Positions 1,092 through 32,300 of a stretch of 64,000 bases of DNA are shown in pieces. This DNA comes from Bugula neritina (Eukaryota > Animalia > Bryozoa): positions 4,186,741 to 4,250,740 of the forward strand of contig OZ037768.1 of assembly GCA_964035545.1 (NCBI GenBank). The letters are read 5' to 3'. The notes under the pieces are model-generated. The model did not search any database. It saw only the letters and a list, made by a program, of their open reading frames with translations, and was not told the DNA's origin. A program made the position numbers and the translations under genes. Positions within the stretch are counted from its first letter, which is position 1. Every line of letters starts with the position of its first letter.

Positions 1092-1780
<689 letters not shown>

Positions 1781-3732: not shown

Positions 3733-4038
3733 ATTGAGGAGACAAGAGTTACAAAAGAGAGAAGTGCGTTGTTTGGAGTTCACTAGACTTCAGAGGTTTA
3801 TATTTGGAAAAAAGAGTCGAGAGGCTTGTTGAGAAAGGTGGTGAGTGTTGACTTTTGAGCAATTTATAAAGAATACTAATAGATTCAGAATAAGAGTGAC
3901 TGCGAAAGGAACTGAGAATTAAACTTTGAGAGACACGGATGCCCAGAGATTGAAACTGAGAGTACAGTGCATAATCACGAGATAGCTGCTTAAAATTAAA
4001 TTGTTTTATTTACTATATTAAAACTGCTCAAGTGTAGT

Positions 4039-5412: not shown

Positions 5413-6121
5413 TATAAAATGATACATGTGTGTTGTAGATATGGAAAAGTGTATTGATGTTCACTGTAATGATATAAACACATTATTGCAGTGGAATACT
5501 ATGGAATGACAGGCAGAAGCAGTTACCAACAATGTTGTCTGCTCCCGTGAGTTTAACTCATGGAAGACTCTGTAAGCCGACGAGAGAAGTCAGTTGTGAC
5601 CCTCGCTGTTGCTTCACGGGGTGTGAGCCGAGTGTAGTCTATATGCAGACCCTCGACATCTCACTTTCAGATAATATGATAAATGTGAGGTTTGACCTCA
5701 GTACTGACATGACATCATCAACATTGCCACTAATGTTGTCTGCTCCTGTGAGTTCCTTAGTTTAACTCATAGAAGACTCTGCAAGCTAGCAAGAGAAGTC
5801 AGCCTTGACTCTTGCTGCTACTTCACTTGCAGATAATACGATAAATGTCAAATTTGGCATTGTTCTTCCCAACAGTGCTAGCAATGAGAGGAGGTGGGAT
5901 TCAACATCTAGGACTGAGCCACTTTGAACCACTTCATAATAAGTTTAAGTATTCAAGGGCATTAGTTGAAAGCTAGTTTTGTTTGAATTGATTGCACTTC
6001 TCTTTTAAAAGAAAAGGGCATGTGGAATTATTAGCATCATGATGATGATAATATAGATATGTGTTCTGGTATTCTGAAAATGTGCTCTTGTGCCCTGCTT
6101 CTCTTTTGTAAGGAGGGAGCA

Positions 6122-6249
6122 TGTAAGATGATCTGATGTTGACAAGCTACAAGCTAGCAAGTACTAAAGCTACTGACAAGTGATAGCCGAAGGAAAGCCA
6201 ACAAGGAACACTCTGGAGCTGGAGCTTAGCCTGGTAGGTTAACATTACA
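6122..6249 (+). repeat. 3' LTR (128 bp) of the Gag-protease element
   Basis: Identical to 3587-3714; followed by TSD GAAGC. Confidence 0.95.
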
Positions 6250-8774
6250 GAAGCTGCTGTTAGATATGTGCAAATCATCTCCTAAAGAACAGAAAGATAA
6301 AGTTCAGGTATAGTTTGATATATTGTACGGCTTGTTCTTAGGTCATCATTTACAGTTCACTCAAATTTTAGTACTTGATATGTTGAATCGTAAGCTGTGC
6401 ATACATGTACATGCACGTATATACAGGCGTGTACCTACTAGGTTGGCTTGCGCTTACATGTAGACTGACACCGGTAATATATAGGAAGTATATTGAATTT
6501 TATAATTTGTATAAGGACACACATGGATACAAATAAAAATTTTAGTATAATATTATATTTATATTATTATGGAATGTGTGATAGTGCCAATTGCGTGAAA
6601 ATGAAAAGATAACTCCAATTAGCTTCTATTATGTTTAAATTTATTCATGCTCAAAATTACCTATGGTAATTTTCGTTGGGTTTTAGCAACACTAATTTTT
6701 CATACTGATTCATTTAGCCAACTGCAGTGTAGAATCCGTGTATATTTTAATATAGATGTATATATATATTATAATGTTGACAAGGGGTAAGGTGATAAGC
6801 TATGTCATAAGCACATCTAAAAGACTGTTTAAAGTATTTTTCATTGAATGTCACAGTTTAATAGTGTTAGTGGCACCCAGCAGCGTTGGACAGTCACTCC
6901 CAACTACCTGACTGTAAAGAACATCATTTCTAAACATCTTCTCATTTGAAATTAATGGTAAGATATAGCAGCATATACTTCAGTTATGAAACGGCTCGGT
7001 ACAACTCAAGTGCTCATTTGTATTCATTAAAATATAAACACATACTTCATCATCTCAAGTGGCCATCTATAGGTAATAACCTTTTAACAGATAATAATTA
7101 TTTGACTTCATTTGTCAAGATATCTGACTTAAACTAAAGTAGAGATCAAAGCTGCTCCCATTTCTCTAGTTTAGCAGGTAAAATATCACCTTTTGTTGTA
7201 ATGAGGTCAATTTGCACTTTACAGTTACACTGCCTTTATTCTTCTTCATGTTTTCCACCTACCCTAAAGGTATTAGTCAACTGTGTAAATAGAGCTCTTT
7301 GATGTTTCTTTTTTTAAACTGTTATCTCCTCATATAACCTTGGAACTCTGTGATATTAATTTTTTTCATAATTTAGCTTCTGAACTCTGTGATAATAATA
7401 TTTCTCATTTACTTTTATATCAGCGTTGACAGGCGGCAGAACTTGTTTAAAATAACTTAGTTAGGCTTCTCTCATTTTAAATTTTATTGTTGATGAATTG
7501 TTTAAAAGTTGTTGTGGTGCTAACAGATGCAGGAGGAAAAGTGATGATAACATGAAACGCATTGCACTTGGCATATTCTTGCTTCATTATTGACTGCGGT
7601 TTAGGAAACCTCACTGTCATTCTATCATTATCTTCCTTTTTATTTCTATTAAATTAAAATTATTTACCGATGTCATATCCAGCATAGATAATTCAAATAC
7701 TTATGTCAAGCTTGTCATTCGCTGTATTTGATTTGTTGAGAATTAATTCATATGATTTTAATCATGTCTACCAGTTTTTATATGCATTTAACAATAACTG
7801 GGCGTGTACTGTTCATATTTGCCAGACTATTCATATTTTCCAGCTCTCAAGTTTCACAATAGATTCTCCTGAGCTAACAAAGTTGAACGCTGGCAGCGGT
7901 CCTGCTATCTCCATCACTTGACAGCTGCGACGGTCTGCACCAGTCTTCCTGTTGAAGTTGAAGTTGAAGTTGAACTTTTGAAATGTCTTGAGCGTTATTC
8001 ACCGGCTTTTCATATATCGATCTCAGATCGATCTCAGCGAGATCGATTCATGGAAAGCCAATGATTGGGTGTAGCTGTCAATCAACTGGGAGTGGTTGTC
8101 CTTTGTACGAGATGCTTTCATAGACAATATACTTTGAAAGAGGAACTAATACTGACAACTATGAATATCAAGCAGCGGCTGTCATGTCACAGACAGTGTG
8201 TTAAATTTATGGGAATATTGTAAGAATAACAAAACTAGATTTTCTTTGAAACTTTGAACCATTATATAAACTTTAGAGCAAATAGTGTGAGTTTTTGGGA
8301 GATTTCAGCTTACCTAGGATATAAAATTTTAAAAATTGAAATTTGGCGACCCACATTTTGTCAAATTTATTTACTGCAACTGTGAATATACTTACCACCC
8401 AACATCTGCCACCACAAAACCGATTGGAAGACCACAAGGTTGAAATGTCATTATGTAAACATTATTTAAATATTAACAACACTGGCTTTTTATTGGCAAT
8501 ATTTTCATAAAGCGTCTTATTTTCATAGTTTTGCACTAAGCTATGGTAAAAGTTCTGGTTATTTTTGTAACCACTGTAGGTTATTTGGTCTCGGGGTACT
8601 TTTTAAAAATATTCACTTCTTAAGCTAATCTCTACTCCGTAGGATTTTTTCACATGTTCAAAGTGTTGCTAAGAAACAATCAGATGCTTAGAAGGACTAA
8701 ATGTTAGGGTAGATATTATGTATTATGATATACTAGTATTTGATGAATGAGATTGAAAGATATGATGGTTTACT

Positions 8775-8778
<4 letters not shown>

Positions 8779-8823
<45 letters not shown>

Positions 8824-9131
8824 GTTTTTTGACATCTTATCTAGCTTTAATTACTTATACGATGGAGCATGTTATAGATACATTATGTAACTTTACAGAT
8901 TGTAAAGTTATATAAATGTTGAGCTTTTCCTATTAAAATGATCTCATTGCATATATTACATGTATAATTCACTATTACTATTAGTACTATTACAACTACA
9001 GCATATTAGTACTAGTATAGCCTACTAGTATTAGTGTAGTATAACTATATTACTATTAGTACTCATGCTATAGTGTTGCTATTAAAATCTGGAAGACTCA
9101 ACTTTATTTCATAGAGTCAATAGATTATAGT
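8779..9131 (+). repeat. (TA)n run plus copy 2 of the 310-bp direct repeat
   Basis: Matches 1474-1780. Confidence 0.9.
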
Positions 9132-14270: not shown

Positions 14271-15023
14271 TCATGTACGCCTTTCAGCTACACTAAACTT
14301 TTTACACAAATAGACCACTAGCAAGAGCAGACCTAGTAGAGGCAAAAAGGTACCAAATAATATGCCTACATAATGGCCATTGTTGTATGGAAGTACATCC
14401 GCGAAGATAATCAGAACTGTCATCGTCATAGAAAGTGCAATACTGGAGAGAATCACACACATATATCCATAAGCTTGCAAACACTTGCCCGGCTGGGGTC
14501 TCCTAAAGATACCGACTATAGTTGCTGTCGTGATGACGAGTTGGAGAAAAGTGACAGAAAATGCTACGATGCTGGAGAGAAGTTCGGCGAAACCTTCTTG
14601 TAACAACCATAAAGTATGCAGGGATTGCGTTGCTAATATAAATTTAGCGAGTCCAATTAGAAAATCTTCAAAAATGAAGCCTATTATGTAGTTGATGTTA
14701 TTCCACCAAGAAAAGTACTTTGAGCTTTCCGAGAACTCATCGTCTGTATTGTTTCTAGACATAGTGTAGCAAAAGATACAGATTAGAAGAAGCTGACTGG
14801 CGCATAGAACTCCCTGCAAGATGCACCCAACTAGCCATGCCTTTGTCGATGCTACTATTGCATTAGGCATGAATCTGTAATCATATAGTCCACCTAAAGT
14901 GAGTTTATACCAGAAATGGTGATATGCTGCACTCTCAGTGCCCAGGTCAATGATACTCGCTAAGAATGGTATGATGTAAGAGATAACCTGCCACTTCCTC
15001 TGACAACCCTTGCTACACTCCAT
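14271..15023 (-). CDS. Uncharacterised multi-pass membrane protein, paralog 2 (about 250 aa)
   Basis: The ORF track starts at GTG 15056, but the first ATG (15023, MECSKGCQRKW) aligns with the paralog 1 start (MACGIGRTCTVRW). Splice acceptor CCTCCAG|G at 15064/15063 implies an upstream exon; candidate donor AAAG|GTATTT at 16587. Confidence 0.82.
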   Translation of the reverse strand: MECSKGCQRKWQVISYIIPFLASIIDLGTESAAYHHFWYKLTLGGLYDYRFMPNAIVASTKAWLVGCILQGVLCASQLLLICIFCYTMSRNNTDDEFSESSKYFSWWNNINYIIGFIFEDFLIGLAKFILATQSLHTLWLLQEGFAELLSSIVAFSVTFLQLVITTATIVGIFRRPQPGKCLQAYGYMCVILSSIALSMTMTVLIIFADVLPYNNGHYVGILFGTFLPLLGLLLLVVYLCKKFSVAERRT

Positions 15024-16711
15024 TTCCTGTTCCGAACAGATTTTTTGTGCTTTCACTCCTAACCTGGAGGAAAAGTTCTATAATTAGTATTGTCTTTCAA
15101 TGGCTGTAAAGTTAGTCACTTATTGGCTTTCATTATTGAAAAACACACTTTTAGGTTTTCCAACAAAATGAATACATGGAAAGACAGAACAATGTTTGCG
15201 GGTACATGTTTTTTTTAATTTTTATTTAAATGATCACTGTTATAACTTAAAACTAACTCGTGGTATTTAAGTTGTATCAAATCCAATTATAACTCGCAGT
15301 TACATGAATATCTTAGCATGGCAAGATACTAACACCACCTACTAGCTGGTGACAAAACTATTTAGATGACAAAATGTAATTGCACAACATTAGTGTATAT
15401 ACATAATATCATTTTCCTAAAAATAAAATTATAAATATACATTCCACATTTATGTTGAAAATTGAATGTAGTTAAGACTCCATTAAATTGTGAAATTTTA
15501 TCACCAAATGCAGTTTAAATCAATGGAGGTAGATAATATTGCAGTTCTAAAGAATATTTTTTATTGCAGCTTTTTGTAATCATGTATTAATTTCAACTGG
15601 AGTTGATCAGCACATATTGATTGCCAAAGTATGCAATTCATTCAGAGGTAAGTGGAGACAACCACTGTTTCAGTTCTGTTGCTATCAAGCAAAAATTAAT
15701 TACAGTATTCTTTTTTCAAGTGAAGCAAGCTACAAAATTTCTCAAACATACACTCTGTATACATGCAGTATCAACATAGAAAACAAGCAGTCAAATTTCC
15801 ATTATATATAATTGTTGAAAACATAATTTTGGTTATCCAATGCAAATTAAACTAAGCAAGTTGCTTATATTATTCAATTTATGTTTGTATTAGTATACTA
15901 TTTGTTATTATATTATTATTTATCTTAGTATGTTTTTTATATATTGTAATATTATATCTTATTCTGGTAAATACAAGTTTCACAGCAATTACAAAGATTT
16001 TAAAAGTTCATCAAATGTACAATAATTGCAAAGCGGCACACCATTTTTTAAGCTTGAAGAGTTACACAAACTGCCGCTACACTATATATAACTATCACAT
16101 TGATATAATATTATAAGTAATAGTTAATTGATATATACCTTTTCAAGTACAAGATCTCACTAAAAAAATAAAGTATATGTGCACATATGTAACAAGTTTT
16201 ATAGTAGCATTACAGAAGTTAGGCAGCAAACAAAAGTAATTATGGTACCAGAACTTTAGCCTTGGAGTTGCGTGCGTTATGCGTATTTAACTAGGAATAT
16301 CTGTCAGATATTTTACAGAACTGCTATCTTTTTATTATGTGAATCGATATAAGTCCATAAATTGTAGAAAAACTTCATATAATTATTAGTCCGTAAAAGT
16401 AAATCCATATAACTGTTAGCATTAGTCCATATAATTGTTATCTAGTTCTAGTTCGTGAAAGCTGTAATTATTAAAAGAAAACATGATTAGTACTAATTAA
16501 ATTAGATTGTTTAAATATATTTTTATAATATTGCAGTGAACTATTAATTGTTGAATTACTAATGAGAAATTAAAAAACTAAAATACCTTTAGTACACTCC
16601 GAGTTAAATTTGAGCTTCACACTATGACTTCATGACTGTCTGCACGCAACTGAAGTTGACAGAGCCAGGCGACCTACACTTGTTGTTTAGTTAGTTGACG
16701 GCGAAGTAGCA

Positions 16712-16721: not shown

Positions 16722-18538
16722 CGTGTTAGATTCTATTAGGCCCATTATGAGTGTAGCAGTTCAGTTTATTGTTTTGTGTATTTTTACAACTAGCATTTAA
16801 CAACCCACAGCAAACACTATTGATTTAGTGACTATTCAAGAAAGGCACTTCTCTCTAAACATTAAAACAAAACTCCTTTATGTGTTCTTCATTTAATTCT
16901 TTGTGCGAGTATAATGCCTGCTTTTTTATTATTTTTGACTAATGTAGACTAGACAGTATTGTTTCAATGTCAAGTTTAACTTCTTTTTACCTCTTATTGC
17001 AAGAAAATAGATACGTTATTTCTGGTGACAGGCACTAATAATTGTCAAGAAAAGTATTAATTGTTCTCTTTTCAAATTAGCAATTTGGAGTAGTCATATT
17101 ATGAGTACAGTACATAGTGACTAAGAATAAAGAAGCTGATATATAGTATGAATAAAATATAAAATCAGTTGACACGTTTTGAAATGACCAAATTCTACAT
17201 ATATACTAATCTTGCTACACAATCACTATCACACTTCCAATAAGCTTTCTTATTCTAATAAATCATCATATTATATACAAATTTTATAATAAAAAATCTA
17301 TGTTTACAAAGTATTTAATGCATTTTACGAACACTACCAAAAAGTTTTAAATAAGTACTTTTTGACTGCATAGTTTCAGAGACTTAGGCTTATATAGCTT
17401 CCTAAGAACTAAAGATACTAGTTGCAGCAAAATTTAACTTATTGTCTAATGTTTTCGTGGCATAACTATGAACTTCAGAAAATGGTATGTATAGCCGAGC
17501 TATAACATATTATTAGCTAGTTATGGTACTAGAATGTAGATGATCTGTGTACTGTAGCTATGTACCTTGTGTTTTATTCTTAGTAAGTATATACCCCTAT
17601 CAGCATATTCAACACATATAGTTGCTAACACGACTTATGTAGTATTGCAAAATACATAAGAATTGGGATAACTTTTTTGTATAAGTGGGTTATAATTCTT
17701 AGACTATAGTGTATAACAAAAATGGAAACATCTGTTTTACTTGCTCGCTGGACAAATAAGTATTTTATGGAGTTGCACTACTAAAGTAGGAATTATGTTA
17801 ATTAATCAATCATATTACGAGTAATTTTTGTTGCGGGCTTGCTATTCGAAGAAAAGTTTATAACTCTCCATAGAAATACTAATTATGATGAACGCGATCA
17901 GTCTATATTAAATATGCGATCCGAATCTGTGATTTAATTTTATGGTGTATGAAAAACGTGTACCAAATTAATTAACAAATATGGAAAAAGAAAATCAACA
18001 AAATGATGAGCAAACGGTGAATATATTAACGCCTTTATTTTATTAAGACATACGTTTAAGAATGATTAAGATTTATATTTTAAGTTCTACTTCCATCAAA
18101 TTTAATATGAGTATCACAATCATTATCAATATGAATATTATTATAATTACAGAGATTATGAACAAGGTTATGCATTAAAACTGTGCTTATGAACTGAAGA
18201 TATACCTAATATTTGCACTTTTTGTCACTGATGGTTGTATTTTACTAAATTGCTATTTCTATTACTATCAGTATCAGTATTACTATTAGTATTACTATTG
18301 GTATTTATACGTAATATAAATATTTGTAAATTATTTTAAAAATTGCTCATTGTTTTATAACTTAAAAAAACCCTATAATCTGCTTAAATTATTATTTACA
18401 GTTACCAACTATACAGTAATTTATAATACAACGGTTTAAATAATGATATTTTACACCAAATTTTACATATGCATGCACATGCAAATTGTTAACAAACATT
18501 GATGTTGATTCTTTTGATCTTCAACATGTTATACATGG

Positions 18539-18809
18539 TGTAGTAAGGACGTAATGCGCGCGTCCCCCGTATTCCTTCAGCCTATCCAAGTGCGTCACGT
18601 GATAGCCCTGAGTTAGTAGTAGTTTTGCAGTAGAGAGAGCGTGCTAACTAAGCGAAGATGTAATCTCTAATCTGTGTACGTGCTGTATCTTTTATATAAT
18701 TAGTAGTAAATAAACTTGGAAACTTTTACCTAAATACTTTATTGGTGTAGATAAATAGACATAATTACAAGCTAGGAACCCACGCATAGTAGTTACATAA
18801 CTTACTACA
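18539..18809 (+). repeat. 5' LTR (271 bp)
   Basis: Identical to 25840-26110; contains TCACGTGA, TATATAA and AATAAA. Confidence 0.96.
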
Positions 18810-18810
18810 G

Positions 18811-18829
18811 TGGTGGCAGCAGTGGGATT
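18811..18829 (+). other. Primer-binding site, tRNA-Leu type
   Basis: TGGTGGCAGCAGTGGGATT is complementary to AATCCCACTGCTGCCA-CCA, one difference from the recalled metazoan tRNA-Leu(AAG/TAG) 3' end AATCCCACCGCTGCCA-CCA. Confidence 0.78.
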
Positions 18830-18870
18830 TCTAGCTACTGTATGAGAACAATGAGAAGTATTAGAACATC

Positions 18871-21800
18871 ATGGACGAGGGAGTAACTTCAATGGAAGGA
18901 GGTGAGCAGAACATTATTATAGGCCCTCTCGGAGCTGGAGAGGAGGTATATAGGAACACGTTGGAGGTTCCCGTGTTCACAGGCCGCGAGGATATTGAAC
19001 AATTCGTTCAAGAATTCCGTGAAGCTGCAGCCATTACAAGATGGCCGCCAAGAGTAACCCTTATGAAACTGCGGATGGCACTGACGGGAGAAGCCAAGCC
19101 GTACGGGTGGAAGCCTAGCATAAACGGGATCATTGCTACACTACGGGCCCGTTTTGGCATGCCCGTTGCCGTCGCCAAGTCCAGGCTGCGAGGATTACTC
19201 CGCAAGACAGGTACACCGCTTTCTGACCACGCCACTCTGGTGCAGAGACTGGCACGGACCGCGTATAGCGATCTGCCAGAAACACACAGACGGCACTACA
19301 CATTCGAAGCCTTTGTACAGTCTCTCAACTCTTTGGACTTCCACCACCAGTTACAAGCCAAGGGAGTGACCACAATCGAGGCTGCAATCCAGGAGAACAA
19401 AGCCTACGCTGGAGCCGAGCGACTCTATAAGACGGAAGAGACCACTCCCCAGACCTCTAGGGAACCAGACCATCCGGTCCACACAGCTGCCGCGACCACT
19501 AAACCCCCCATAGAGATGGAGATAAGCCGCTTGATGACTAGACTGGGACAATTGGTGGCGACGATAACATACAACCACTCAAGGAAGAGTAAGAGGACGG
19601 CAGCAAAACCCCCCAGACCTATGATGCGACGCTGGGAAAGCGGCAACCAGGGGCACCGCCACCTGAGCGGCCCACGATTCAAACGGCAGCAGAAACCACA
19701 ACCTCCCCGGAGACCCCCAGAGCTCCGCGGGCACACACAGAGAGGAAAACGGGGTGGATGTCGCCAGGAGCCCGTACGGGCCCAGCAACACACCCCCCGT
19801 CAATGGCAAACACCTCGCCGAACCAGCCAACCGGGTCGACCACGAGACCCCTTCTCTTTGCCTCTCACCAACCGCTTCAGTCCGTTACCAGTAATGGAAC
19901 AGACCAGCGAGGCCCCTCAGGGCATCGGGGAGGATCAGAACGCCTCCCCGCAAGGAAACTCTCACCGGCCCCGCAAACCGCGGAACAAACGGGCACAGCC
20001 CCGTTCGGCCGAGACCGAGCACGCTGGGGGAGTACGGGTACAACCTCACGGAGGCAGCTACTTCTTGCCAGGGAAGGTGGCCGGTAAAGCTGTCACCTTC
20101 CTGCTAGACTCCGGGTGTACCACTAATCTCCTCAGCCGTCGGGTCTTCGACACCCTCCCTCTCAAGGAGAGGGGAGCCTTAGCTCCCTATACCGGGGAAC
20201 CGGGCACCCTAGCTGACGGGTCACGGATTCCTTTCTACGGTATCATAGAATTGGCTGGGCGCGTCCGCGACCAGGCCATTCAGGAAACCTTCGTCATCAG
20301 CCCACTGGAGGAAGATGCCATACTGGGGATGCCGTTCTTGAAGAGACACGGGTGCCATATTGACTTTAGCAAGTCAGCCATGCTAATGGGCGGCAAAGAG
20401 CTCACCTGTGTCGACAAGTTCGGTCGTCCTCTAGCGGGAGGTGTGCAGGTAGTACGCAACTGTACTATACCCGGCCGCTCCCGGGCTACCGTTCACTGCA
20501 GAGTGAACAATAGCCAACTCTCGGGGCTAGGGGTTGTCGAAGGTGCGCACACTAGAATCCAACTCGCCAGCAGTCTTAACCGGCTGACTGACCGAGGAGA
20601 GATCTTGGTGCAGTGTGTCAACCCCTTCTCCGAAGCGGTACAATTACCGTCAGGATCCATGCTGGGTCGCTTCCACTCCATCCAGGAGGAGGATATAGGG
20701 CCGTCGCTGGGAGCTGCGACGGAAGGTCCCCAACAGAGCCCGTCAGTTAGGCGGGGGACCGTCCCATCACACGTCAAAGAGCTATACCAGGCAGCGTGTA
20801 ACGGCTGCACGGGCAACGTGGAACGCCAGACTATGGCTCAGTTGCTACGTGATTATAGCGACGTGTTCAGCAGTGGGGACCATGACGTCGGCCTGACCAC
20901 GGCCGTCCGTCATGAGATACCGCTGGCTGCAGGGACTACCCCTATTCGGCAGCCCACTAGGAGGCTGGGACCCGAGAAGGAAAAGGAGGTCAGCCAACAA
21001 GTCCGGGATCTTTTGGACCGCGGCCTCATCGAGCCAGCACATAGTGCGTGGAGTTCACCGGTCGTCCTGGTCCGAAAGAAAGACGGCAGTTGGCGGTTCT
21101 GTGTGGATTATCGCAAGCTCAATAGCGTGACCATACAGGACGCCTACCCCTTACCCAGGATCGACGAATCTCTGGACGCCTTAGCCGGCAGCAAGTACTT
21201 CAGTACGCTAGACTTGTTGAGCGGCTATTGGCAGGTCCCCCTCAGCCCAGACGCCCAGGAGAAGGCGGCGTTCATCACGCGGGACGGCTTATGGAAGTGG
21301 AAAGTCCTCCCCTTCGGACTGACTTCTGCCCCCGCCACGTTCCAGCGGCTCATGGAACAGGTCCTCAGTGGACTCCACTGGAAGACACTGCTAGTATACC
21401 TCGACGACGTCATCGTGATCTCCCCAGACTTTCAGACGCACGTCAGCCGTCTGCGGGAGGTCTTCGATCGACTCCGAGGCGCCAATCTGAAGCTCAAACC
21501 CTCCAAGTGCGCTCTCTTGCAGCCAGAGGTGAAGTACCTGGGGCACATCGTCGGCCGTCACGGTGTGGCGACGGATCCTGAAAAGGTACGAGCTATAGAA
21601 GATTGGGTAACCCCCCAGGATTTGACCGGGCTACGGGCTTTCCTGGGGCTGGTAGGGTATTACAGGCAATACATACCAGACTTTGCGGGGGTAGCGCAGC
21701 CATTAAACCGGCTCACCGCAAAGGGGGTGACCTGGCAGTGGACTCCCGTCGAACAGAGAGCGTTCGACTGCCTCAAAGGCCGCCTGCTGGAGGCCCCTAT

Positions 21801-22833
21801 CCTGGCCTATCCAGACCCTGCCCTGGAGTACATCCTCGATACTGACGCCAGTGACCAAAATGTCGGCGCTGTGCTGTCCCAGGTGCAGGAGGGCCGCGAA
21901 GTAGTCGTGGCCTACTACAGTAAGTCTCTCTCGCCCACTGAACGAAATTACTGCACTACCCGAAAGGAATTGCTGGCAGTAATCAAGTCAGTGAAGCATT
22001 TCAGACCTTATCTATACGGCAGGAAGTTCCGCTTGCGGACCGACCACGCCTCCTTGATTTGGTTATGTAAGAGAGCAGAACCGTCCAGCCAAGTCGCCCG
22101 ATGGCTCGAGGTCCTGGCTGAGTTCTCTTACCGGATCGAGCACCGACCCGGTAAGAAACACGGCAATGCTGATGGACTGAGCCGGCGACCGGACGAGGGG
22201 TGTAAACAGTGCCTCAACATCGAGAAGAGGGACGGAGGTCCTCCAAAATCCGAGTTGAGAGCACTGAACCACTCTGAAACGGAGTATGACTGGGACCAGG
22301 GTCAACTCCTACAGAAGGCCGCTACGCCCCCGGAGGCTATCCAACGCCTCCGTGCCAATCCTGTCTTGGCTGATAACGTTAGGGAGCTACGAAGACTCCA
22401 GGAGGACCTCCCTGGAGTGGTAGCCGTCGTATATCGTGCCAAAAAGGAGGGGCGACGACCCAGTGAAGAACAACTGCGGCAGGGATGCACCGAGTTACGG
22501 TCGTACTGCCAACGTTGGGACTCCCTGCGGATCGGGCCAGATGGTCTGCTGACCATCACAGTGGCTGCTCACAACAACCAGTATGGCAGGAAGAGGGTGA
22601 TCTGCCCAGCCGCCATACGCCGGGAGTTAGTATGGGACACCCACAAGCAAGCCCACGCCGGGGTGAGCAGGGTGCTCTCCAAGTTACAACTCCGGTGGTA
22701 CTGGCCCGGCATGGAGCGTGAGGTGCGGCGTAGAGTCAAACAATGCGAAATCTGCCAGGCCAGCAAGCATGGCCGTCTCCCTGGTGAAGCGGGACGGCGT
22801 AGGTATATGCTGGAAGGCCGTGGCAGGTGGTAG
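18871..22833 (+). CDS. gag-pol: Gag-Pol polyprotein: capsid, protease, RT, RNase H, integrase HHCC domain; frameshifted near 22804
   Basis: Capsid-like VPVFTGREDIEQFVQEF; protease FLLDSG; RT motifs WRFCVDYRKLN, PFGL and YLDD (21397); RNase H TDAS and TDH; integrase zinc domain HKQAH...CEIC. Confidence 0.95.
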   Translation: MDEGVTSMEGGEQNIIIGPLGAGEEVYRNTLEVPVFTGREDIEQFVQEFREAAAITRWPPRVTLMKLRMALTGEAKPYGWKPSINGIIATLRARFGMPVAVAKSRLRGLLRKTGTPLSDHATLVQRLARTAYSDLPETHRRHYTFEAFVQSLNSLDFHHQLQAKGVTTIEAAIQENKAYAGAERLYKTEETTPQTSREPDHPVHTAAATTKPPIEMEISRLMTRLGQLVATITYNHSRKSKRTAAKPPRPMMRRWESGNQGHRHLSGPRFKRQQKPQPPRRPPELRGHTQRGKRGGCRQEPVRAQQHTPRQWQTPRRTSQPGRPRDPFSLPLTNRFSPLPVMEQTSEAPQGIGEDQNASPQGNSHRPRKPRNKRAQPRSAETEHAGGVRVQPHGGSYFLPGKVAGKAVTFLLDSGCTTNLLSRRVFDTLPLKERGALAPYTGEPGTLADGSRIPFYGIIELAGRVRDQAIQETFVISPLEEDAILGMPFLKRHGCHIDFSKSAMLMGGKELTCVDKFGRPLAGGVQVVRNCTIPGRSRATVHCRVNNSQLSGLGVVEGAHTRIQLASSLNRLTDRGEILVQCVNPFSEAVQLPSGSMLGRFHSIQEEDIGPSLGAATEGPQQSPSVRRGTVPSHVKELYQAACNGCTGNVERQTMAQLLRDYSDVFSSGDHDVGLTTAVRHEIPLAAGTTPIRQPTRRLGPEKEKEVSQQVRDLLDRGLIEPAHSAWSSPVVLVRKKDGSWRFCVDYRKLNSVTIQDAYPLPRIDESLDALAGSKYFSTLDLLSGYWQVPLSPDAQEKAAFITRDGLWKWKVLPFGLTSAPATFQRLMEQVLSGLHWKTLLVYLDDVIVISPDFQTHVSRLREVFDRLRGANLKLKPSKCALLQPEVKYLGHIVGRHGVATDPEKVRAIEDWVTPQDLTGLRAFLGLVGYYRQYIPDFAGVAQPLNRLTAKGVTWQWTPVEQRAFDCLKGRLLEAPILAYPDPALEYILDTDASDQNVGAVLSQVQEGREVVVAYYSKSLSPTERNYCTTRKELLAVIKSVKHFRPYLYGRKFRLRTDHASLIWLCKRAEPSSQVARWLEVLAEFSYRIEHRPGKKHGNADGLSRRPDEGCKQCLNIEKRDGGPPKSELRALNHSETEYDWDQGQLLQKAATPPEAIQRLRANPVLADNVRELRRLQEDLPGVVAVVYRAKKEGRRPSEEQLRQGCTELRSYCQRWDSLRIGPDGLLTITVAAHNNQYGRKRVICPAAIRRELVWDTHKQAHAGVSRVLSKLQLRWYWPGMEREVRRRVKQCEICQASKHGRLPGEAGRRRYMLEGRGRW

Positions 22834-24329
22834 CTATCGACCTAGTCGGACCCATGCCCGTCACCCCCAGAGGAAACAGTTGGATCCTAGTATTAACCGA
22901 CCACTTTACACGGTGGGCGGATGCCCTGGCTATTCCAGATGCGTCCGCCCCCACAGTGGCCAGGGTGCTGGATCAAAATGTATTCTGCTATCTTGGACTA
23001 CCTGAGCAAATACATTCGGACCAGGGGGCTCAATTCCAGTCCCAACTGTTGAGCGACCTCTGCCGCCTCTGGGGAGTAAACCAAAGCAGGACCACCCCGT
23101 ACCATCCTCAGGGCAACGGGGTGGTGGAACGCAACAATCGCATGTTGGGCGATGCACTGCGCAGTCTGCTCCTCGGCCGGGGTCAGGAGGAGTGGGATAC
23201 GGTACTGCCGCAAGTCATGCGGGCCTACCGTAGTACACCACACACCAGTACGGGGGAAACCCCTAACCTCCTGATGCTCGGTCGAGAGACGCGAGTGCCT
23301 GACCACCTCACATACCACATCCCAGAACAGGACTATACCATCCACGAGTATGCCAGTAAATTGATAGAGGACCTGAGGGCCGCACACGAAATACTGCGGG
23401 CGAAGCAGTGGCAGGTACGGCGAGAGGACTCTCAGGAACCACCTCTCTATCAAACTGGGGACTGGGTGTGGATGGTCAACTACCGTAGGCGTCGAGGACA
23501 AGCGGCTAAGCTCCAGCCTAAGTTTGTGGGACCCTACGTAGTAGTTGAGGCTATGCCCAATCATACGTACAAGTTGGAGCGATCTGGACAGGTCTCTGTC
23601 CAGAACGAAACCCGCTTGAAACCGTATTGGGCTAGCCCAGGAGCAGCAGGAGCAGCCCCCCCGTTGTTGGAGCCCAGGAGGCAGACAGTAACGCGTGGGC
23701 GGCAACGGCATGGACCCGAGTACGAAGTGGTCGTGCCGCGGGGAGAGGACTTGGTGAGGCAGGAGACGCCACTCCCACCAACGGAAGTGCGCCCACCGCC
23801 CCCAGTACCAAGTCTACCCCCACCACTTCCGGTTCCGCATCCGCGTCCGGAAGTGCAAAACCCCCCCGTGGGAGGGGCTCCATCTGGAGACAACAGCGGA
23901 GAGGGGAACACCACCACCAACGGCGGGCCAGAAACACCACAGGTGGAGCAAAATAGCCCACCAGTGAGTACGCCGCCCCAACCAACAGCTACAACTCCCC
24001 CTCCAGCTGATACGTCACCTCCCCTGGAACGGGGACAGCGTACTAGACAACCCCCAGCATACCTTAAAGACTACATATGTGACCGTGTTACAAACGGCAG
24101 TTATGAAAGTCTAGCTGGGCGCCGTACGGAAGGACTGGCAGCAAAGCGTGGGAGTTGTGAACACCACGGAAATCTCAACTTTTGCGAAGGCGGAGTAGTA
24201 AACAAAACTACTACGCCCGGGGCAAATAGTTCCAGCCGTGCGCAACAACCACGCTGCCCAGTCTTTTCGTACGCTGACGTTGTCAAGGGAAGACGCATTC
24301 AAACTCAATCCACGGACATCCAAGCTTGA
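22804..24329 (+). CDS. pol: Integrase catalytic core, GPY/F motif and Pro-rich tail (continuation of pol after the frameshift)
   Basis: YAGRPWQVVAIDLVGP, IHSDQG and QGNGVVERNN give the DDE triad; KLQPKFVGPY; RTRQPPAYLKDY. Confidence 0.93.
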
Positions 24330-24394
24330 ACGCTGAGTATGATTACAAATACCGGGTTCTCAGGTAAGCTTGCTCTGAGCTAACATTTCCACTC

Positions 24395-25483
24395 ATGGAA
24401 ACCAGTCTACCATCAGTCAGTTCTGATTTAATCGCCTTGATTGAATCACAACTACTGGGGACTGAGTCTTACGTGAAAGGCGACGAGAACATAAAGATGG
24501 CCGACGATCTACTAGATCTGGAGCTTGACACTATGTCTCTCTGTCAGTCTACACGACACGACTCAGTCCCTCGAGTGCTATCTGAAAAGATGTATGACTC
24601 CCAGACTAGTAACAGTCGGTTGTCATCAGAATTATGGTGTAAAGATCATATTCGATCTAACAGTAATTCTGCTCTTTTAGATACCGCTCTCTCTCCTCTC
24701 TCTGGTGACATGCCGTCACTAGAAATGGCTTGGAACGAGGAACCCGTTCCCACTACTCTTCCGGAGGCACTCCTACAACAATCATGCTGGGTTACAACAG
24801 ATACAGAAACACTGATACGAGAGCACAAGGGAGACGACCAATGCACCACCTGCCGTTTATGCCAGCTTCACTTCACTACCTCACGAAGACTTCGAGTTCA
24901 TATTCCCCAACATTATTTCACCACCTTTTGTCCCTGTGGTGAATATAGTTACCACAGGGACTACATCCTCCGTCACCAGCGAACTATGGGATGCCATATT
25001 GGACACCTGTTCGAAGTCGACGAACCCTCCTTTCCACAATTCCTTAATCTCATCCGACCGTTCATATCAGACCCAGTTCGATATGAACGGCTGCGTCAGG
25101 AGTTCCCCGCACCCAGGACCATCACACAGGGACCCTGCCCTAAACCACCCGGATATAGGAAACCACGCGTATCCCGTTCCTCACCCCCCGCACGCACAGT
25201 GCTCCACCCCGACTCCATACCAAGAGTCGTGTTACGACGCATCGATATACCACAGCGATGGCGTCCCTCCCCCCCTGTCTCCCCAAGGCCTTCTCGTAAA
25301 CGGCGTTGGCCATCTTCATCCCCCAACCGACACTCTGCCCCTGCCAGGAATCTAGGCGAGGCAGAAGAGCGGATACGAGAATTAGAGAAAGAGGTGCAAA
25401 GACTGACACCGAGAATCTCCGCCGCCGCATCAGAACTCCGGGCCCTCTCTGCCTCTGTAGCCCGAATGAAAGGAAGTGCTTGA
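24395..25483 (+). CDS. Retrotransposon ORF3: zinc-finger plus coiled-coil protein (362 aa), not Env-like
   Basis: Intact ATG-to-stop ORF between pol and the PPT/3' LTR. C2H2 finger CRLCQLHFTTSRRLRVHIPQH and a second finger CPCGEYSYHRDYILRHQRTMGCH. Basic RPSRKRR segment. Heptad-like C-terminus. No signal peptide or TM segment visible. Confidence 0.8.
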   Translation: METSLPSVSSDLIALIESQLLGTESYVKGDENIKMADDLLDLELDTMSLCQSTRHDSVPRVLSEKMYDSQTSNSRLSSELWCKDHIRSNSNSALLDTALSPLSGDMPSLEMAWNEEPVPTTLPEALLQQSCWVTTDTETLIREHKGDDQCTTCRLCQLHFTTSRRLRVHIPQHYFTTFCPCGEYSYHRDYILRHQRTMGCHIGHLFEVDEPSFPQFLNLIRPFISDPVRYERLRQEFPAPRTITQGPCPKPPGYRKPRVSRSSPPARTVLHPDSIPRVVLRRIDIPQRWRPSPPVSPRPSRKRRWPSSSPNRHSAPARNLGEAEERIRELEKEVQRLTPRISAAASELRALSASVARMKGSA

Positions 25484-25839
25484 AGATGATGCCCCTCCTC
25501 TCCCTATCCGTGATGGTACAGCAGGTGGTGCCCCATTACAGACCCTTCTCACGCCGGTGCTCACAAACAATTACTCAGTGTAACAATATAGTAACCTACC
25601 AGTATACAGCTCTACCTCTACAAACTATCCCTTATAAGTGCCTCCCGCCGGTGCCATTGTGTATTTACTGTTATATTTTTTTATATATGTATATGTTTCT
25701 TATTACTGTACATAGCCATGTTTTTCTCTTATGTACCACACGCTCTCTCGGTTTTTTTTATATAGTTTTATAACATTTTATGTTCGAATTTATTGTATCT
25801 GTGTTATCAGAAAGTAGGGCTTTCTGCTGGGGGGGGCGG

Positions 25840-26110
25840 TGTAGTAAGGACGTAATGCGCGCGTCCCCCGTATTCCTTCAGCCTATCCAAGTGCGTCACG
25901 TGATAGCCCTGAGTTAGTAGTAGTTTTGCAGTAGAGAGAGCGTGCTAACTAAGCGAAGATGTAATCTCTAATCTGTGTACGTGCTGTATCTTTTATATAA
26001 TTAGTAGTAAATAAACTTGGAAACTTTTACCTAAATACTTTATTGGTGTAGATAAATAGACATAATTACAAGCTAGGAACCCACGCATAGTAGTTACATA
26101 ACTTACTACA
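25840..26110 (+). repeat. 3' LTR (271 bp)
   Basis: Identical to the 5' LTR; preceded by the PPT. Confidence 0.96.
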
Positions 26111-26394
26111 ATATGTCAGTTATTAAATGTTACTTCGATGTAATTTTTATATAGTTTGCAAGAAATACTAACATTGATTAAGGTTTTGTTGATTAAGGTT
26201 CTTTTTGTATACGTTAAGAGTATCATGATTAGATACGTTTTATGTATGCCCAAAATATTAAGTTGATGCCACTATTACACTTGATGCTACTTAATACATT
26301 TTTAGTTGGCAAAATTAATGAAATTGTAAACCTATCTATCTGCTTTGCATGCTATTTTCAAATGTAAAATTGACATTTATATGAATTTTAGGTT

Positions 26395-29300
26395 ATGAAT
26401 GCCTTGGAATCTCTCAAAGAGCCCCCACCCCAACCAGTAAAGGCGGAGGCTGCTATAACTGCTCCTACAGTTACCAGTCTTCCCAAGCTTCCAAGAGCTA
26501 AAAAGGGTTATTTATATTAATTAACATAAAACAGTGAATAAAAGCAGTCACTTAATGGTCTTCTGCGGCATTAAATTTGCTAATTTCAACTAACAAAGTA
26601 TTTATATCCTCATGCATATTACTGTGTTCTATAGATTCAATAAATTTTTAGCTTGATAATACAATGGCTACAAGGTGACAAAAACTTTTTAACTTATTTA
26701 AACTAATTTTGCTTTTAATAACTGCTGTGTTGAATAGTTGGTAACTTAATTAAAGAAAAAATAACAGATTGTATAAAAAATAAGGCTTATAAACGACTTT
26801 TGCAACTGTGTTAGATAGTTAGTAGAATAAGTTTTTCTTGATTGTGAATACTGTAGTTATAGGCTTTTAATGTAGTTTTGTATTATGCTAAACATCTATG
26901 TAGTTCCGGAGTTGCCTATCATTGAAAGAAGGAACTGGCTAATACATCTGCATTATATTCAAAAAGACTATGAGAGATGCATGGAGATAGTGAATGAGCA
27001 GTTGGCAGAAACAGGGGGAATGTGTGAATACGCCATCTATGCTAAAGGTGTGTATATAACAGCTGGTCTCCACTGTAAATCCTGAGTTTAAGGTTGTGGG
27101 CAGTCCAAATTAATTTGGAGTCGCTGCTTGTTTTGTTATAAAACATAAGTTTGAAAGGCAGGAACTGCTAAACCTTATAGTCTATATTGTATTTTTGTTT
27201 TTTTTGTTCCACCTAGTAAAAACTGATCCTAAAAATTATTTTAAAATTAAAATGTTTAGTTAATCTGAAATCATAAATAGTTCTAAATTTAATCTAAAAT
27301 AGGAAATTAAATTGTCTAATTTTGTGAAAAAGACTTTTTTACAAAATCCTATTGCTGTGTAAATAAAGCTTATATTCCCATCTGGTCATAGTTGTTGGTA
27401 GAACTATTTCTTACCACTTATTATCAACTTAATTACATTAATTTTTCAGCCCTTATGCTGCGACAAGATGGAAAAATACAAGAATCTTTGGAGCTCTTTC
27501 AAACTTGTAGTATTCTCAATCCAAACTCTTGTGACAACATGAAACAGGTTGCTAGATCCTTGTAAGTCACATTATGACCGCTCGTAATGTGACTCACTAA
27601 TCTAATGTGACTCACTAGTCTAATGTGACTCACTAGTCTAATGTGACTCACTAATCTAATGTGACTCACTAATCTAATGTGACTCACTAGTCTAATGTGA
27701 CTCACTAGTCTAATGTGACTCACTAGTCTAATGTGACTCACTAGTCTGATGTAACTCACTAGTCTCCTGTGACTCACTAATCTACTGTAACTCTCTAGTC
27801 TAATGTGACTCACTAGTCTGATGTGACTCACTAGTCTAATGTGACTCACTAGTTTAATGTGACTCACTAGTCTAATGTGACTCACTAGTTTAATGTGACT
27901 CACTAGTTTAATGTGACTCACTAGTCTAATGTGACTCACTAGTCTAAAGTGACTCACTAGTCTAATGTGACTCAGTATGTAAATAATAATAGCTGTACAA
28001 CTGTTGGGAAAGAGGTTTGCTTTCACTGTATCTCAAGTTACATCAATTAATTTCTATTTTTGAAGTCAGTATTTACTTGAACCAATTTGACTTGCAATTA
28101 CAAATGTTAGTGCTCTGTGTGTGCACCGAGTATCGTGTGAAACTTCTACCTGCAGATTTCTCTTGGGCCGACACCGTGCAGCTATTGATGTGTATAACGA
28201 AGCAGCTACAATGAAAGAGCAAGATTGGGTGAGCAGACTTTACATTTTACCAACTTATTAGAACTCTAGTAATATACTGCAGAACACAGCCTTAGATATG
28301 ATTTTCAGGAAGTGTACCACAACCAGGGGGTGTGCTACATGTACCTCAATGAGAGAAACCAGGCGAAAACTCTTCTACAGAAAGCAATAGACTGTCAGAA
28401 ACATGAACTGTCTTTCATAATGCTGGGCAAATGCTACATCCATGAGCAGGATACTAGGAAAGCTATTGAGATATTCAAGCAAGCAGTAGAGTAAGTTTTA
28501 CATGTTCTGATTGGACATTCAAACTCTGTGAGCAGCTGTCACTCAGTGGATGCAGGTGCTTGTCTAACAGATGCTCACTCTAGGTCTCATTGTTGTGATG
28601 TCAGAATGGCATTTATTTACAATATTTTGCTCTGAACTGGAGAAACCATACTGCTAGCAGAGTTTGCAACTCTAAATATTAAATAACTGTTTGATTGATT
28701 TACACATTAGCAATAGTAAACTATATTTTTTAAGAAAAAATTATTTAGTGCTCCAGTGATTTTTTTACATGTAATTTGCGTTGTAAAAATATTTACAGAT
28801 TTTTAATGATTAAATTCTTAGCCCAAGTCTGTGTAATATAATATATTTAGGTAATTTAAAACAGCAAATTTGTTTTATTTTATAGGTTTTCCCCAGAAAA
28901 TCCTGATTTGCTGGCTACTTTAGGCATCCTGTATATTGAAGTAAGTGAATAGACTTGAGCAAAATTCTGATGACTACGTTAGGGTAGATCACCATTAAAC
29001 TAGTTCTGTCTGTGAGCTTCACTGTTAAAACTTTTTCAGTTTGGGTTTTAGATCCTGTGTACTATATTATTAGTATCATAACTATAAACTATTAGTAACT
29101 CTAAACTGTAAAGTCTAAACTTTTAGTAACTATAAACTATTACTAACTCTAAACTATCAATGACATAAATGATTAGTAAACTATTAGTAACTATCAACTA
29201 TTAGTAACTATCAACTATTAGTAACTATCAACTGTTAGTAACTATCAACTATTAGTATCAGTCAAACACATGGCTCACACTACTATTGAATGTAGGCTGG

Positions 29301-32300
29301 CAACTACCAGAAAGCCTTTGAACACCTGGGCAATGCCATGACTCATGATAATCAGCATATTCAGTCGATACTGGCTGCCGGGAAACTGATGCAGCAGTTT
29401 GGAGAGTTTGACGTGGCCCTCACCAAGTACAGGATCGGCAGCAGGGAGACACCGGAAAGTGCGCCCATGTGGAACAATATTGGAATGTGCTTCTTTGGCA
29501 AAAAGAAGTTTGTTGCTGTAAGTGTAGGCCATAGGGGTCAACGACCTTGAACCTCTGTAAAATTGAAATTAAATGTTTAACATAATTTAAGAACTTTATT
29601 ATTTTTAAAGATGCCTGCCAATACATTGTTACCAATGCTAATCGTTTATTGCTAGAATTCTCATGCAACTCATCAAATTTATCCATTTATTTTCTTTTTT
29701 CACAACAGTTCTATCTTTTATAAAACAGAAAACTTGAAAGCTGATGAAATTATCATAGCTTTACTTTCATTGTTCATTCAGTCATATTTTTCATTTTCTG
29801 ATGCTTTTTGGCGAAATGTTATTGATGCCAGTCTACATGAATTTAGGCAATAGCATGTCTGAAAAGAGCCAGCTATCTCTCTCCATTTCACTGGAAGATA
29901 CTGTACAATCTGGGACTGGCTCATTTGCACATGCAGCAGTATGCGTCAGCTTTCCAGTTCTTCAGCGCTGCCATTAACTTTAACAACAAACACGCTCCTC
30001 TTTACATGCTTTTGGCAGGTATGAGTTGGAAATATAGTTGTACAGTATATAAACACACCATGTATGGAATTGTTTACATCAAATATATCTCATTTTTATT
30101 GTGAGTAAACAATAGTGAATCATAATCACTGTAAAGTTATACATACTTGTGCGATGTAATGTTGCTATGTCGCAATAGCTCCAGGGAACCCATTTAGCAC
30201 CACTTTTCAACCACTTTCTAAGTAATATATTATTTAAGTTTTGGTGGAGTTGTGTTGTCATTGACGTGATAATACTTTCAGTGGCCCTCACTCATCTTGA
30301 TGACAAGGAAAATGCTAGAAATGCTTATGAAGAAGCTGTGAGGTTATCAGACACGTGAGTTTTAATAAATAGTTGTCTGGCAGTATTTAGGTGCTGTGAA
30401 AGAGAAATTTTGATAGCCTAAGTTCTTTAACTATCTTTATAAATTTTGGTTAAAGGCACGGGTTTGAGACCCGCATGGTGACATAACTTCTTTTGCAATA
30501 TTTTCCAATTTCTCCATTACTGCACCTAGCTATCTGATAATATACGTAAGCTGTCTACTACAGTCTGTAGTAAGTAGAGACAATGCTTGACTAGCATCAT
30601 AATTTAGTCTATATGTAAGTGTATTTGAAAGTGTGTGGTGACATGATAAGGTAGAAACTGTTGTTATAGGAGTAAAATATTATGTCATACACCTTTGTCA
30701 GTATTGGAGTTTCTTGTATCAACCCGTAGGAAGGAACTTTCAATACCTCTCAACTATTCCGTATTCTTATACAAGAATGGAGACAAGAAAGGGGCCAGCA
30801 AACAGTTTACAACATTTGAACACAGAATCAAGGAGAGGAAAGACAGGGGAGATAAAGACTTTGATAGTCAGGTACTGTTCTATGTAGAGTATTGTATATA
30901 CTGTGTAGAGTATTGTATATACTGTGTAAAGTATTGTATATACTGTGTAGAGTATTGTATATACTGTGTAGAGTATTGTATATACTGTGTAAAATATTGT
31001 ATGCATTGTGTAAAATTGCCAGATCATTGTGTTATTTTATTTATGTTCAGCTATTTATCATACAATAAATAAAATATTATAGAATGAACATAATATTTTA
31101 TGATAAATGTAGTATTACATAATAAATATAATAATATATAATAAATGTCATATTATATAATAAATATTTTGTGAATTAACTAGCCATTAGTTAACAGATT
31201 ACCCAATGGCACACAATAGCCTGTAAATATTGTAGTTGATACAAGTCAGTTTGAAACTGGGTCCAGCTCTTCAGCTGGGTGAGAGTTTAGTATGGCAGAG
31301 CAGACCTGAGGCTAAGACTGAAAGTGTGAAGCCTCCTCCCCCTCCCCAACACATGGCTGAGCCAGTAGTTGTGCCCACAGAACAAAGGTAAATCTAGTAC
31401 AGTGGTGTGTGCATGTAAATACTGATATAGGTTAATTATTAATGCATACATTATATCACACTACTTTATCTAATATATCACATGCTTCAATTACAAGCAT
31501 TTAGAATAATTATCTAAAAGATGTACTATATTTGTTAATACTCTAATATTTTTGTGTCTAGTCTTCAAATCATGATCTACTGATTGTCTATAGAAAAGGT
31601 TATCTACACCGTACTGTACATACCTACACCGTACTGTACATACCTACACTGTACTGTACATACCTACACTGTACTGTACATACCTACACTGTACTGTACA
31701 TACCTACACTGTACTGTACATACCTACACTGTACTGTACATACCTACACTGTTCTGTACATACCTACACTGTACTGTACATACCTACACTGTACTGTACA
31801 TACCTACACTGTACTGTACATACCTACACTGTACTGTACATATCTACACTGTACTGTACATATCTACACTGTACTGTACATATCTACACTGTACTGTACA
31901 TACCTACACTGTACTGTACATACCTACACTGTACTGTACATACCTACACTGTACTGTACATACCTACACTGTACTGTACATACCTACACTGTACTGTACA
32001 TACCTACACTGTACTGTACATACCTACACTGTACTGTACATATCTACACTGTACTGTACATATCTACACTGTACTGTACATACCTACACTGTACTGTACA
32101 TATCTACACTGTACTGTACATACCTACACTGTACTGTACATACCTACACTGTACTGTACATACCTACACTGTACTGTACATACCTACACTGTACTGTACA
32201 TATCTACACTGTACTGTACATATCTACACTGTACTGTACATATCTACACTGTACTATACATACCTACACTGTACTGTACATACCTACACTGTACTGTACA

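Follow-up and report, generated by a model that had tools for sequence, protein, structure and literature searches.

Most Gypsy elements are thought to depend on host factors for transcription and for export of their RNA. The retroviral transactivators Tax and Tas/Bel1 are encoded near the 3' end, and the env of insect errantiviruses is made from a spliced message. It is already known that Gypsy elements can have accessory genes other than env (i.e., CERV of Cer1 and the third ORFs of rotifer elements). According to excerpts of the paper on Cer1, CERV contains a leucine zipper, a nuclear localization signal, and a Cys-rich region; its spliced mRNA shares the gag exons, and the protein is required for export of the genomic RNA (PMC10309623). 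The same excerpts describe H, M, and G domains, of which G resembles a GTPase, along with what may be a C4 finger, and they report no homologues beyond nematodes (PMC10309623). Bdelloid rotifers have LTR retrotransposons with family-specific, non-env third ORFs after pol (excerpts of PMC5408684 and PMC5718144). In the portion of PMC5408684 that we used, these proteins are DEDDy exonucleases, GDSL esterases, or membrane proteins, and a zinc-finger factor is not among them. Chromoviruses carry a chromodomain at the C-terminus of integrase (excerpts of PMC12440569 and PMC3605345). As for bryozoans, their repeats are poorly described (excerpt of PMC13326412), and their env-bearing elements are of the gB type, with the order gag-env-pol (excerpt of PMC13524379); the word "zinc" is absent from the main text of the latter paper.

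The element that we studied lies in a 64,000-nucleotide stretch of the genome of the bryozoan Bugula neritina (contig OZ037768.1, positions 4,186,741 to 4,250,740), which we will call the window. Unless we name another sequence, coordinates are positions in the window, on the forward strand. The ORFs encode, in order, protease, RT, RNase H, the integrase zinc domain, the integrase core, and an SH3 domain, which is the Ty3/Gypsy (Metaviridae) order (as assigned with Pfam). Direct repeats at 18537-18809 and 25838-26110 are 100% identical, and they contain a 5' LTR (18539-18809) and a 3' LTR (25840-26110) of the same sequence, each 271 nt long and bounded by TG and CA. The primer-binding site (18811-18829) is presumably of the tRNA-Leu type, and it is found again, unchanged or with one different letter, in the related loci L001 and L003. 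A G-rich polypurine tract is at 25829-25839. A single frame of 1320 amino acids (18871-22833) encodes everything from gag through protease, RT, and RNase H to the integrase zinc domain, and another frame (22803-24329) encodes the integrase core, the SH3/GPY-F domain, and a disordered tail. The break is a frameshift within integrase that interrupts pol in the window copy and is absent from many sister contigs (in three sequencing runs).

Contigs from sequencing run X1, which is possibly the sample that the window comes from, span both junctions between the element and its flanks. For this one insertion, there is no clean target-site duplication of 4-5 bp (the flanks at 18534-18538 and 26111-26115 read CATGG and ATATG). 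As the LTRs are identical yet the target-site duplication is imperfect, this copy is possibly a recombinant of two insertions. In the same run, 351 contigs cover the region of the third ORF, with a summed depth in the thousands, as compared to about 89 on the flank; this excess shows that there are many copies, and it is not usable as a copy number. The window element is a young, multi-copy Gypsy retrotransposon. Its LTR has a CACGTG box beside a GCGTCA motif, as well as a TATA-like box just 16 nt ahead of AATAAA (18590-18601 and 18693-18714, and again in the 3' LTR). The leader of the window element is only 40 nt long, versus a long 5' leader in L001 (positions 270-846 of that locus) with a strong predicted donor (540) and acceptor (473).

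The rest of the window contains several other features. An older LTR element, which we take to be Mag-like, lies at 1432-9131; its terminal repeats of about 350 nt are 96-97% alike, and although no long pol ORF is left, it retains a 470-aa ORF (4000-5412) in which a protease motif accompanies two CCHC knuckles. Short exons of a TPR gene that seems to resemble BBS4 run from about 26390 to 29600, starting roughly 280 nt past the end of the 3' LTR. On the reverse strand, a 429-aa open frame with repeats that we take to be NHL-like (53615-54904) sits amid the exons of a WD40 gene (about 45600-61000) that presumably corresponds to the Elongator subunit ELP2. Also on the reverse strand, 325-1044 and 14271-15077 are a paralogous pair of single-frame ORFs for multi-pass membrane proteins.

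Our subject is the third ORF of the Gypsy element (ORF3; 24395-25483, 362 aa). The first-pass annotation described it as an intact gene within the LTRs that takes the place of env and resembles a transcription factor. The ORF is indeed present and open; it begins after a 65-nt gap from the stop codon of the integrase frame (at 24329), and it lies between the identical LTRs. The motifs listed in the first-pass annotation are all where it placed them; the frameshift in integrase, the altered gag knuckle, and the mismatched flanks of this copy were not part of that annotation. Its N-terminus (24395-24751) is acidic, with 21 D/E versus 8 K/R, and is predicted to be disordered apart from short Leu-rich helices. 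A conserved globular domain follows (about residues 121-240; 24755-25114). It comprises a helix with W132, a C2H2 finger (24851-24913), a CxC-H-C finger (24929-24994), a strand that ends in VD, and two helices. Next, there is a basic Pro-rich stretch with the motif RPSRKRR at residues 298-304 (25286-25306), which is a candidate nuclear localization signal. An RKRR-like motif is present again in most of the close homologues that are long enough to reach that region. Finally, the C-terminal heptad repeat noticed in the first pass corresponds to a helix at residues 320-360 (25352-25474) that is modelled with a pLDDT of 86-93 and is predicted to form a coiled coil.

ORF3 shares its third-ORF position with the env of errantiviruses, but it has neither a membrane helix nor the fold of a fusion protein. 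We found no transmembrane helix, as the annotation had stated, because the highest hydropathy over 19 residues is just 0.93, and the predicted fold is that of zinc fingers. So we reject Env as the identity of ORF3. The likeness to Tax and Tas/Bel1 is limited to the 3' position and the proposed role. This is an analogy: we found no link in sequence or fold, nor would we expect one.

The two fingers are well conserved. In an alignment of 175 rows, with identity down to 23%, the ligands of finger 1 (C153, C156, H169, and H173, i.e., the canonical C2H2 finger that had been reported at this position) are kept in 95%, 96%, 96%, and 94% of rows, and C179, C181, and H194 of finger 2 are kept in 97%, 94%, and 94%. 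Finger 2 had been proposed to end in either Cys or His. Its first three ligands stand, and its fourth is more likely to be C200 (kept in 85%) than H201 (41%). Twelve positions (W132, T137, C153, C156, H169, H173, C179, C181, G182, H194, V208, and D209) reach 90-97% conservation across the rows. The helix of finger 1 is basic (R/K164 in 85%, R165 in 76%, and R/K167 in 82% of the same rows).

For residues 118-245, AlphaFold2 predicts a single domain of about 120 aa (pLDDT 95, pTM 0.86), while the rest of the ORF3 model, aside from the helix at 320-360, is mostly disordered. Finger 1 fits the C-x2-C-x12-H-x3-H pattern of classical C2H2 fingers, and the domain has profile matches to C2H2 chains, with a best E value of 1e-5. 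The window protein matches no Pfam family at the cut-off. When 54 homologues were compared to Pfam, the domain exceeded the cut-off only in P0111, a protein with two copies of it (zf-C2H2_4, 27.7 versus 27). Fold searches against PDB, PDB-wide, and viral libraries gave nothing significant (no Foldseek match at E ≤ 0.001; best Z of 3.4), which does not demonstrate that the fold is new. A structure atlas places a Watersipora homologue in unnamed clusters and in generic C2H2 sets. Since the only fold matches are weak ones to C2H2 tandems, it appears that finger 1 is ordinary while the domain as a whole is uncatalogued in the libraries that we searched.

The finger pair does overlay DNA-binding C2H2 tandems, with an rmsd of 2.5-2.8 Å over 50-57 residues but a Z of just 3.2-3.4. 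The best overlay is with Kaiso (Z of 3.4, and 2.8 Å over 57 residues). Like the tandems of the Kaiso/ZBTB33 type, ORF3 has a standard first finger. It differs from them in its CxC-H-C second finger, its short linker, and the extra helices and strand that are packed into one compact domain, and the scores are not significant. Specifically, the linker between the fingers has 5 residues, a hydrophobic residue occupies helix position +6, and the second finger begins with CxC. With these features, and with just two fingers, the pair departs from the canonical arrays of C2H2 fingers that read DNA.

ORF3 is not confined to the window. A search of 5.8 billion proteins yielded 6,856 candidates, of which 75 are homologues at 52-100% identity; 11 of these 75 match 97-99% of the length of ORF3 at 52-70% identity. 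In a full HMMER scan with a limit of E ≤ 0.001, representatives of 177 clusters were matched (150 of them listed), with domain identity down to about 23%. Behind the domain, 120 of the 160 carriers with tails of at least 70 aa have a heptad helix, versus 9 in shuffled sequences, although many of these rows are close kin. When ORF3 and RT were used as queries against a viral contig set, no relative came up. A first scan of metagenomes with an alignment of the close family found no relatives among 293 pattern matches. A search with the domain alignment among 5,192 candidates of 584-2,000 aa also found none, and given the fused Pols described below, that result was a false negative.

Variation among sister copies indicates that ORF3 is maintained. 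We had 40 of 91 variants from sister contigs to consider, and the 38 that fall within the ORF include 22 synonymous changes, 16 nonsynonymous changes, and no stop codons. About 30% would be expected to be synonymous, so the excess is significant (p = 3e-4), with a rough omega of 0.31. By region, there are 7 synonymous and 3 nonsynonymous variants in the domain and 7 and 2 in the C-terminal part, versus 8 and 11 in the N-terminus, which is not different from the neutral expectation (p = 0.21). The domain regions of L001 and L002 differ by 7 synonymous and 2 nonsynonymous changes. So ORF3 is neither absent nor disrupted in sister copies, and its dN/dS is not near 1; loss or disruption combined with such a dN/dS would have spoken against the first-pass proposal.

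These results bear on whether ORF3 might be a host exon that was captured just once, or a neutral passenger. The same domain does occur in bryozoan genes. But purifying selection on ORF3, the link to integrase across a clade, and the scatter of host-annotated copies over three branches largely refute this, and we give it hardly any credence. The available sequences support viewing ORF3 as a conserved, selected, element-borne, non-Env protein that appears to have the layout of a nuclear factor.

The relationship of ORF3 to integrase turned out to be closer than the window suggests. Two distant matches (P0201 and P0223) have integrase ahead of the domain. We scanned metagenome contigs for integrase and obtained 15 loci, 3 of which matched the domain. 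In L001 and L002, one unbroken frame runs through protease, RT, RNase H, integrase, the domain, and the helix, and is followed by a purine tract and TG; in L003, which is decayed, the domain lies behind integrase in a separate frame. We then took the best 120 of 194 matches to the Pol of L001 (proteins of 959-3,052 aa), which divide into 71 close Pols, whose integrases are 49-76% identical to that of the window, and 49 outer Pols. An in-frame fusion of the domain to the end of integrase is present in 26 of the 71 close Pols (25 of them at E ≤ 1e-5) and in none of the 49 outer Pols (at E < 0.001). As the query contained the domain and the search was limited to proteins of 959-3,052 aa, 26 of 71 is not an unbiased rate. 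Among the unfused members of the clade, a free ORF3 is visible only in the window and in L003.

A tree of RT-RNase H from 111 of the 120 Pols and the window (the other 9 Pols had no long RT match) places the close Pols and the window on one side of a branch with support of 100. This tree includes a few bivalve records. The hypothesis that the fused forms are a single clade was ruled out (p-AU = 5e-86). The scatter of fused forms on the tree probably overstates how often the state has changed, because records that were cut short are labelled as unfused; for example, the cluster of P0248 has fused members. Nevertheless, fusion recurs inside families: five members of one cluster, each of 2,373 aa, are fused, as are three members each of two others.

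The fused proteins resemble ORF3 in more than their fingers. Among 27 fused Pols, 21 have an acidic linker, 19 have a basic tail, and 19 have a coiled coil. An LDxLL-like motif is found in 12 of the 27, versus 1.0 expected, but this pattern was picked after viewing the sequences, and the linker was not located in 3 of them. Because most fused Pols keep the order of ORF3, the conserved unit is the whole cassette rather than the fingers alone. Judging by these alignments, the cassette is a mark of an entire Gypsy clade (the 71 close Pols), which the first-pass annotation missed. That annotation was right that the window copy has a free, non-Env ORF after pol, but with 26 of 71 Pols in the clade carrying the cassette in frame, it is not simply a gene in the env slot.

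We noticed a few other variants. The domain and tail of L001 (6347-6925) and L002 (5681-6259) differ at 15 of 209 codons, while the rest of Pol has just 4 changes in about 1,390 codons (too few to be informative about selection on Pol). This suggests that the 3' cassette may have been swapped between copies. Integrase is followed by a different set of C2H2-like fingers in two outer Pols (P0309 and P0323), which may have gained their zinc-finger extension independently. In P0229 and P0239, the terminal coiled coil is kept and the finger domain is missing, apparently by internal deletion. In P0163 and P0221, protease and the cassette are joined directly, without the intervening RT and integrase, and these may represent a non-autonomous family that retains the cassette. 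Finally, P0274 is a Pol of the clade with a dUTPase-family match (PF00692) and a diverged finger domain.

The in-frame fusion brings in a rival explanation: like a chromodomain, the cassette might tether the integration complex and steer it to chosen chromatin or DNA. In lineages of the window's type, the cassette would have become detached and would then either work in trans or be reunited with Pol through recoding. The position of the cassette is that of the chromovirus chromodomain (excerpts of PMC12440569 and PMC3605345), and in both cases an additional domain in frame after integrase marks a clade. Intact fused copies exist (L001 and L002), fusion is repeated within three clusters, and, as noted, it is absent from the 49 Pols outside the clade. 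Unlike in chromoviruses, the additional domain consists of zinc fingers, with a long acidic linker ahead of it and a coiled coil behind, and it is known as a free ORF too. There is no chromodomain: none was found in the three ORFs of the window or among the domains precomputed for the best 120 of the 194 Pol matches. Chromodomain is therefore rejected as its identity. Also, a stop codon and a change of frame separate ORF3 from pol in the window's family, and a contig of high depth (3578) is identical over this junction. The linkers of 70-593 aa, the acidic LDxLL motif, and the terminal coiled coil exceed what a reader domain needs, and L003 and L005 have a predicted acceptor and an ATG at the junction. 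We regard tethering as unlikely, though it is a serious contender because of the fusion to integrase.

Another role for the cassette could be in particle biology or in interference with the host, for instance as a stand-in for nucleocapsid or as a decoy of a host silencing factor. At the zinc-knuckle position of the window's gag (about 19630-19685), two histidines are kept and the cysteines are gone. Furthermore, zinc fingers and coiled coils are also known from structural and adaptor proteins, so they are not exclusive to nuclear factors. But L001 and L002 carry the cassette despite having an intact gag knuckle (in a separate gag frame, whereas gag and pol of the window share one frame), and the basic motif and the acidic segment are better suited to a nuclear factor. 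We find this role improbable.

How would a free ORF3 be expressed? We scored splice sites with generic weights, and all of the splice sites in this study are predictions. Of the 338 GT sites in 18811-25500, the top-ranked candidate donor (24361-24369, site 24364) is between the pol stop codon and the start of ORF3, and the second-ranked one (18899-18907, site 18902) is at codon 11 of gag, in phase 1. The best acceptor in the window, at 24680/24681, is weak (2.6 bits), and both of these donors and this acceptor are in phase 1. Joining the gag donor to 24681 would put ten gag codons in frame with residue 96 of ORF3 and would drop the first 95 residues. Residues 95-96 are compatible with an acceptor in 67 of 69 homologues. 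This conservation could also be explained by RNA structure, because the same stretch forms a predicted stem with which most sister variants are compatible. In L003 and L005, the top-ranked acceptors (1 of 399 and 1 of 94) are just past the integrase frame and immediately before an ATG, with a stop codon 8 codons after that ATG. In L001, the best donor is in the leader and the fifth-ranked acceptor is at the start of the linker. The first ATG of ORF3 is kept in four homologues whose frame opens further upstream, which makes a full-length form likely too. None of the sequencing runs listed as carrying ORF3 is an RNA dataset.

The predicted stem-loop is in the 5' part of ORF3 (24573-24689, z = -3.8), and its 3' arm contains the acceptor at 24680/24681. 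Among 149 windows along the element, 3 of the 13 with the lowest z fall in 24339-24728. Of 11 sister variants within the stem-loop, 5 are unpaired, 3 preserve the pairing, 1 disrupts it, and 2 would be compensatory if the same copy carries both.

These features raise the possibility that ORF3 is a post-transcriptional factor similar to Rev, Rex, or CERV, which would bind structured RNA of the element, multimerize by its coiled coil, and either export unspliced genomic RNA or balance splicing. The splice sites, as predicted, imply that unspliced RNA has to be exported, structure is predicted for the 5' part of ORF3, and the variants in the stem-loop are mostly unpaired, pair-keeping, or compensatory. 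There is also a precedent in Cer1, a Gypsy-class element whose CERV is needed for export of genomic RNA (excerpts of PMC10309623). Like CERV as described there, ORF3 is an accessory, non-Env protein of such an element with a (predicted) spliced message that includes gag codons, and its predicted coiled coil, candidate nuclear localization signal, and fingers parallel the zipper, signal, and Cys-rich region of CERV; it is set apart from CERV, as described in those excerpts, by its C2H2 and CxC-H-C fingers and by a cassette that is often fused to Pol. The first-pass view of a "complex" Gypsy element is supported in part, by the layout of a conserved non-Env gene, and such an element has a precedent in CERV (same excerpts).

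On the other hand, predicted structure occurs throughout the element (z ≤ -3.4 in 14 of its 149 windows), and Rfam has no family at threshold for it (the one match, with E = 0.61, is far below). Residues 35-44 match what we take to be a Rev-type export pattern, but several homologues lose its last hydrophobic residue. And the fold resembles DNA-bound tandems of fingers rather than the domains described for CERV. We consider an RNA-binding role rather unlikely; it owes its rank to the splicing and the RNA structure that are predicted.

The explanation that we favor, with a confidence that falls a little short of an even chance, is that ORF3 is a nuclear regulator of transcription that the element encodes for its own LTR. 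With its acidic Leu-rich segment, two fingers with a basic helix, NLS-like stretch, and terminal coiled coil, ORF3 is laid out as dimeric transcription regulators usually are. ORF3 would dimerize through its predicted coiled coil and enter the nucleus by means of its basic RPSRKRR stretch. The fingers would bind zinc and the element's own DNA, and the acidic segment would activate or de-silence the element. Free forms may be made as a separate protein from a spliced, sub-genomic RNA, and in fused forms the cassette could be released by splicing or by protease cleavage.

Several results support a transcription regulator: the spread of homologues, the selection, the single predicted fold, the overlay on DNA-binding tandems, and the basic helix of finger 1, as well as the heptad helix, the order of the cassette in fused Pols, and the predicted splice signals (those at the junction in L003 and L005, and the shared phase of those in the window). 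Other results weaken it. The in-frame fusion fits a Pol-borne tether equally well. The geometry of the fingers is not canonical, and there is no significant fold match. The N-terminus has no clear selection at the protein level, and the predicted spliced form omits its first 95 residues. Lastly, the acceptor in the window is weak, and L003 and L005 have the stop codon 8 codons past the ATG.

The domain is also found in proteins that are annotated as host genes. Of 30 proteins that we looked up, the named homologues are from Watersipora subatra and B. neritina only. One Watersipora protein contains two copies of the domain, which are 37% and 33% identical to the window's, and it is sister to the window's lineage (support of 98). 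Host-annotated rows are in three separate branches amid element-borne rows, in a tree that is short and weakly resolved. This suggests that the domain may have been domesticated repeatedly in bryozoans; the alternative is that these genes are mis-annotated elements. Three host-annotated proteins from Watersipora and Bugula (P0205, P0216, and P0217) have a common extra N-terminal segment with a YLYH/LLYH...W-like pattern, hinting that they may be one old family of domesticated genes.

The cassette is found both free and fused to Pol, and it is linked to integrase in one clade. A broader hypothesis is that an animal clade of Gypsy elements has its own sequence-specific transcription factor, which would be an analogue of Tax and Tas with an uncatalogued double-finger fold; that this factor moves between Pol-fused and free, spliced states; and that it has been domesticated at least three times in bryozoans as transcription-factor genes. 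We think that this is possible, but doubtful as a whole. In the open literature, to which our search was limited, we found no description of the cassette. The third ORFs of rotifer elements have the same non-env position after pol, but their protein types differ.

If Cer1 CERV is the well-studied exception to the dependence of Gypsy elements on host factors, then a clade-wide cassette that resembles a transcription factor would be a second, unrelated system. Because sister families have the cassette either fused or free, it should be possible to test how the accessory genes of complex retroelements originate, by fission of Pol or by capture and then fusion. And given that this uncatalogued domain is present in bryozoan host genes, we may be looking at the birth of zinc-finger genes from a retrotransposon.
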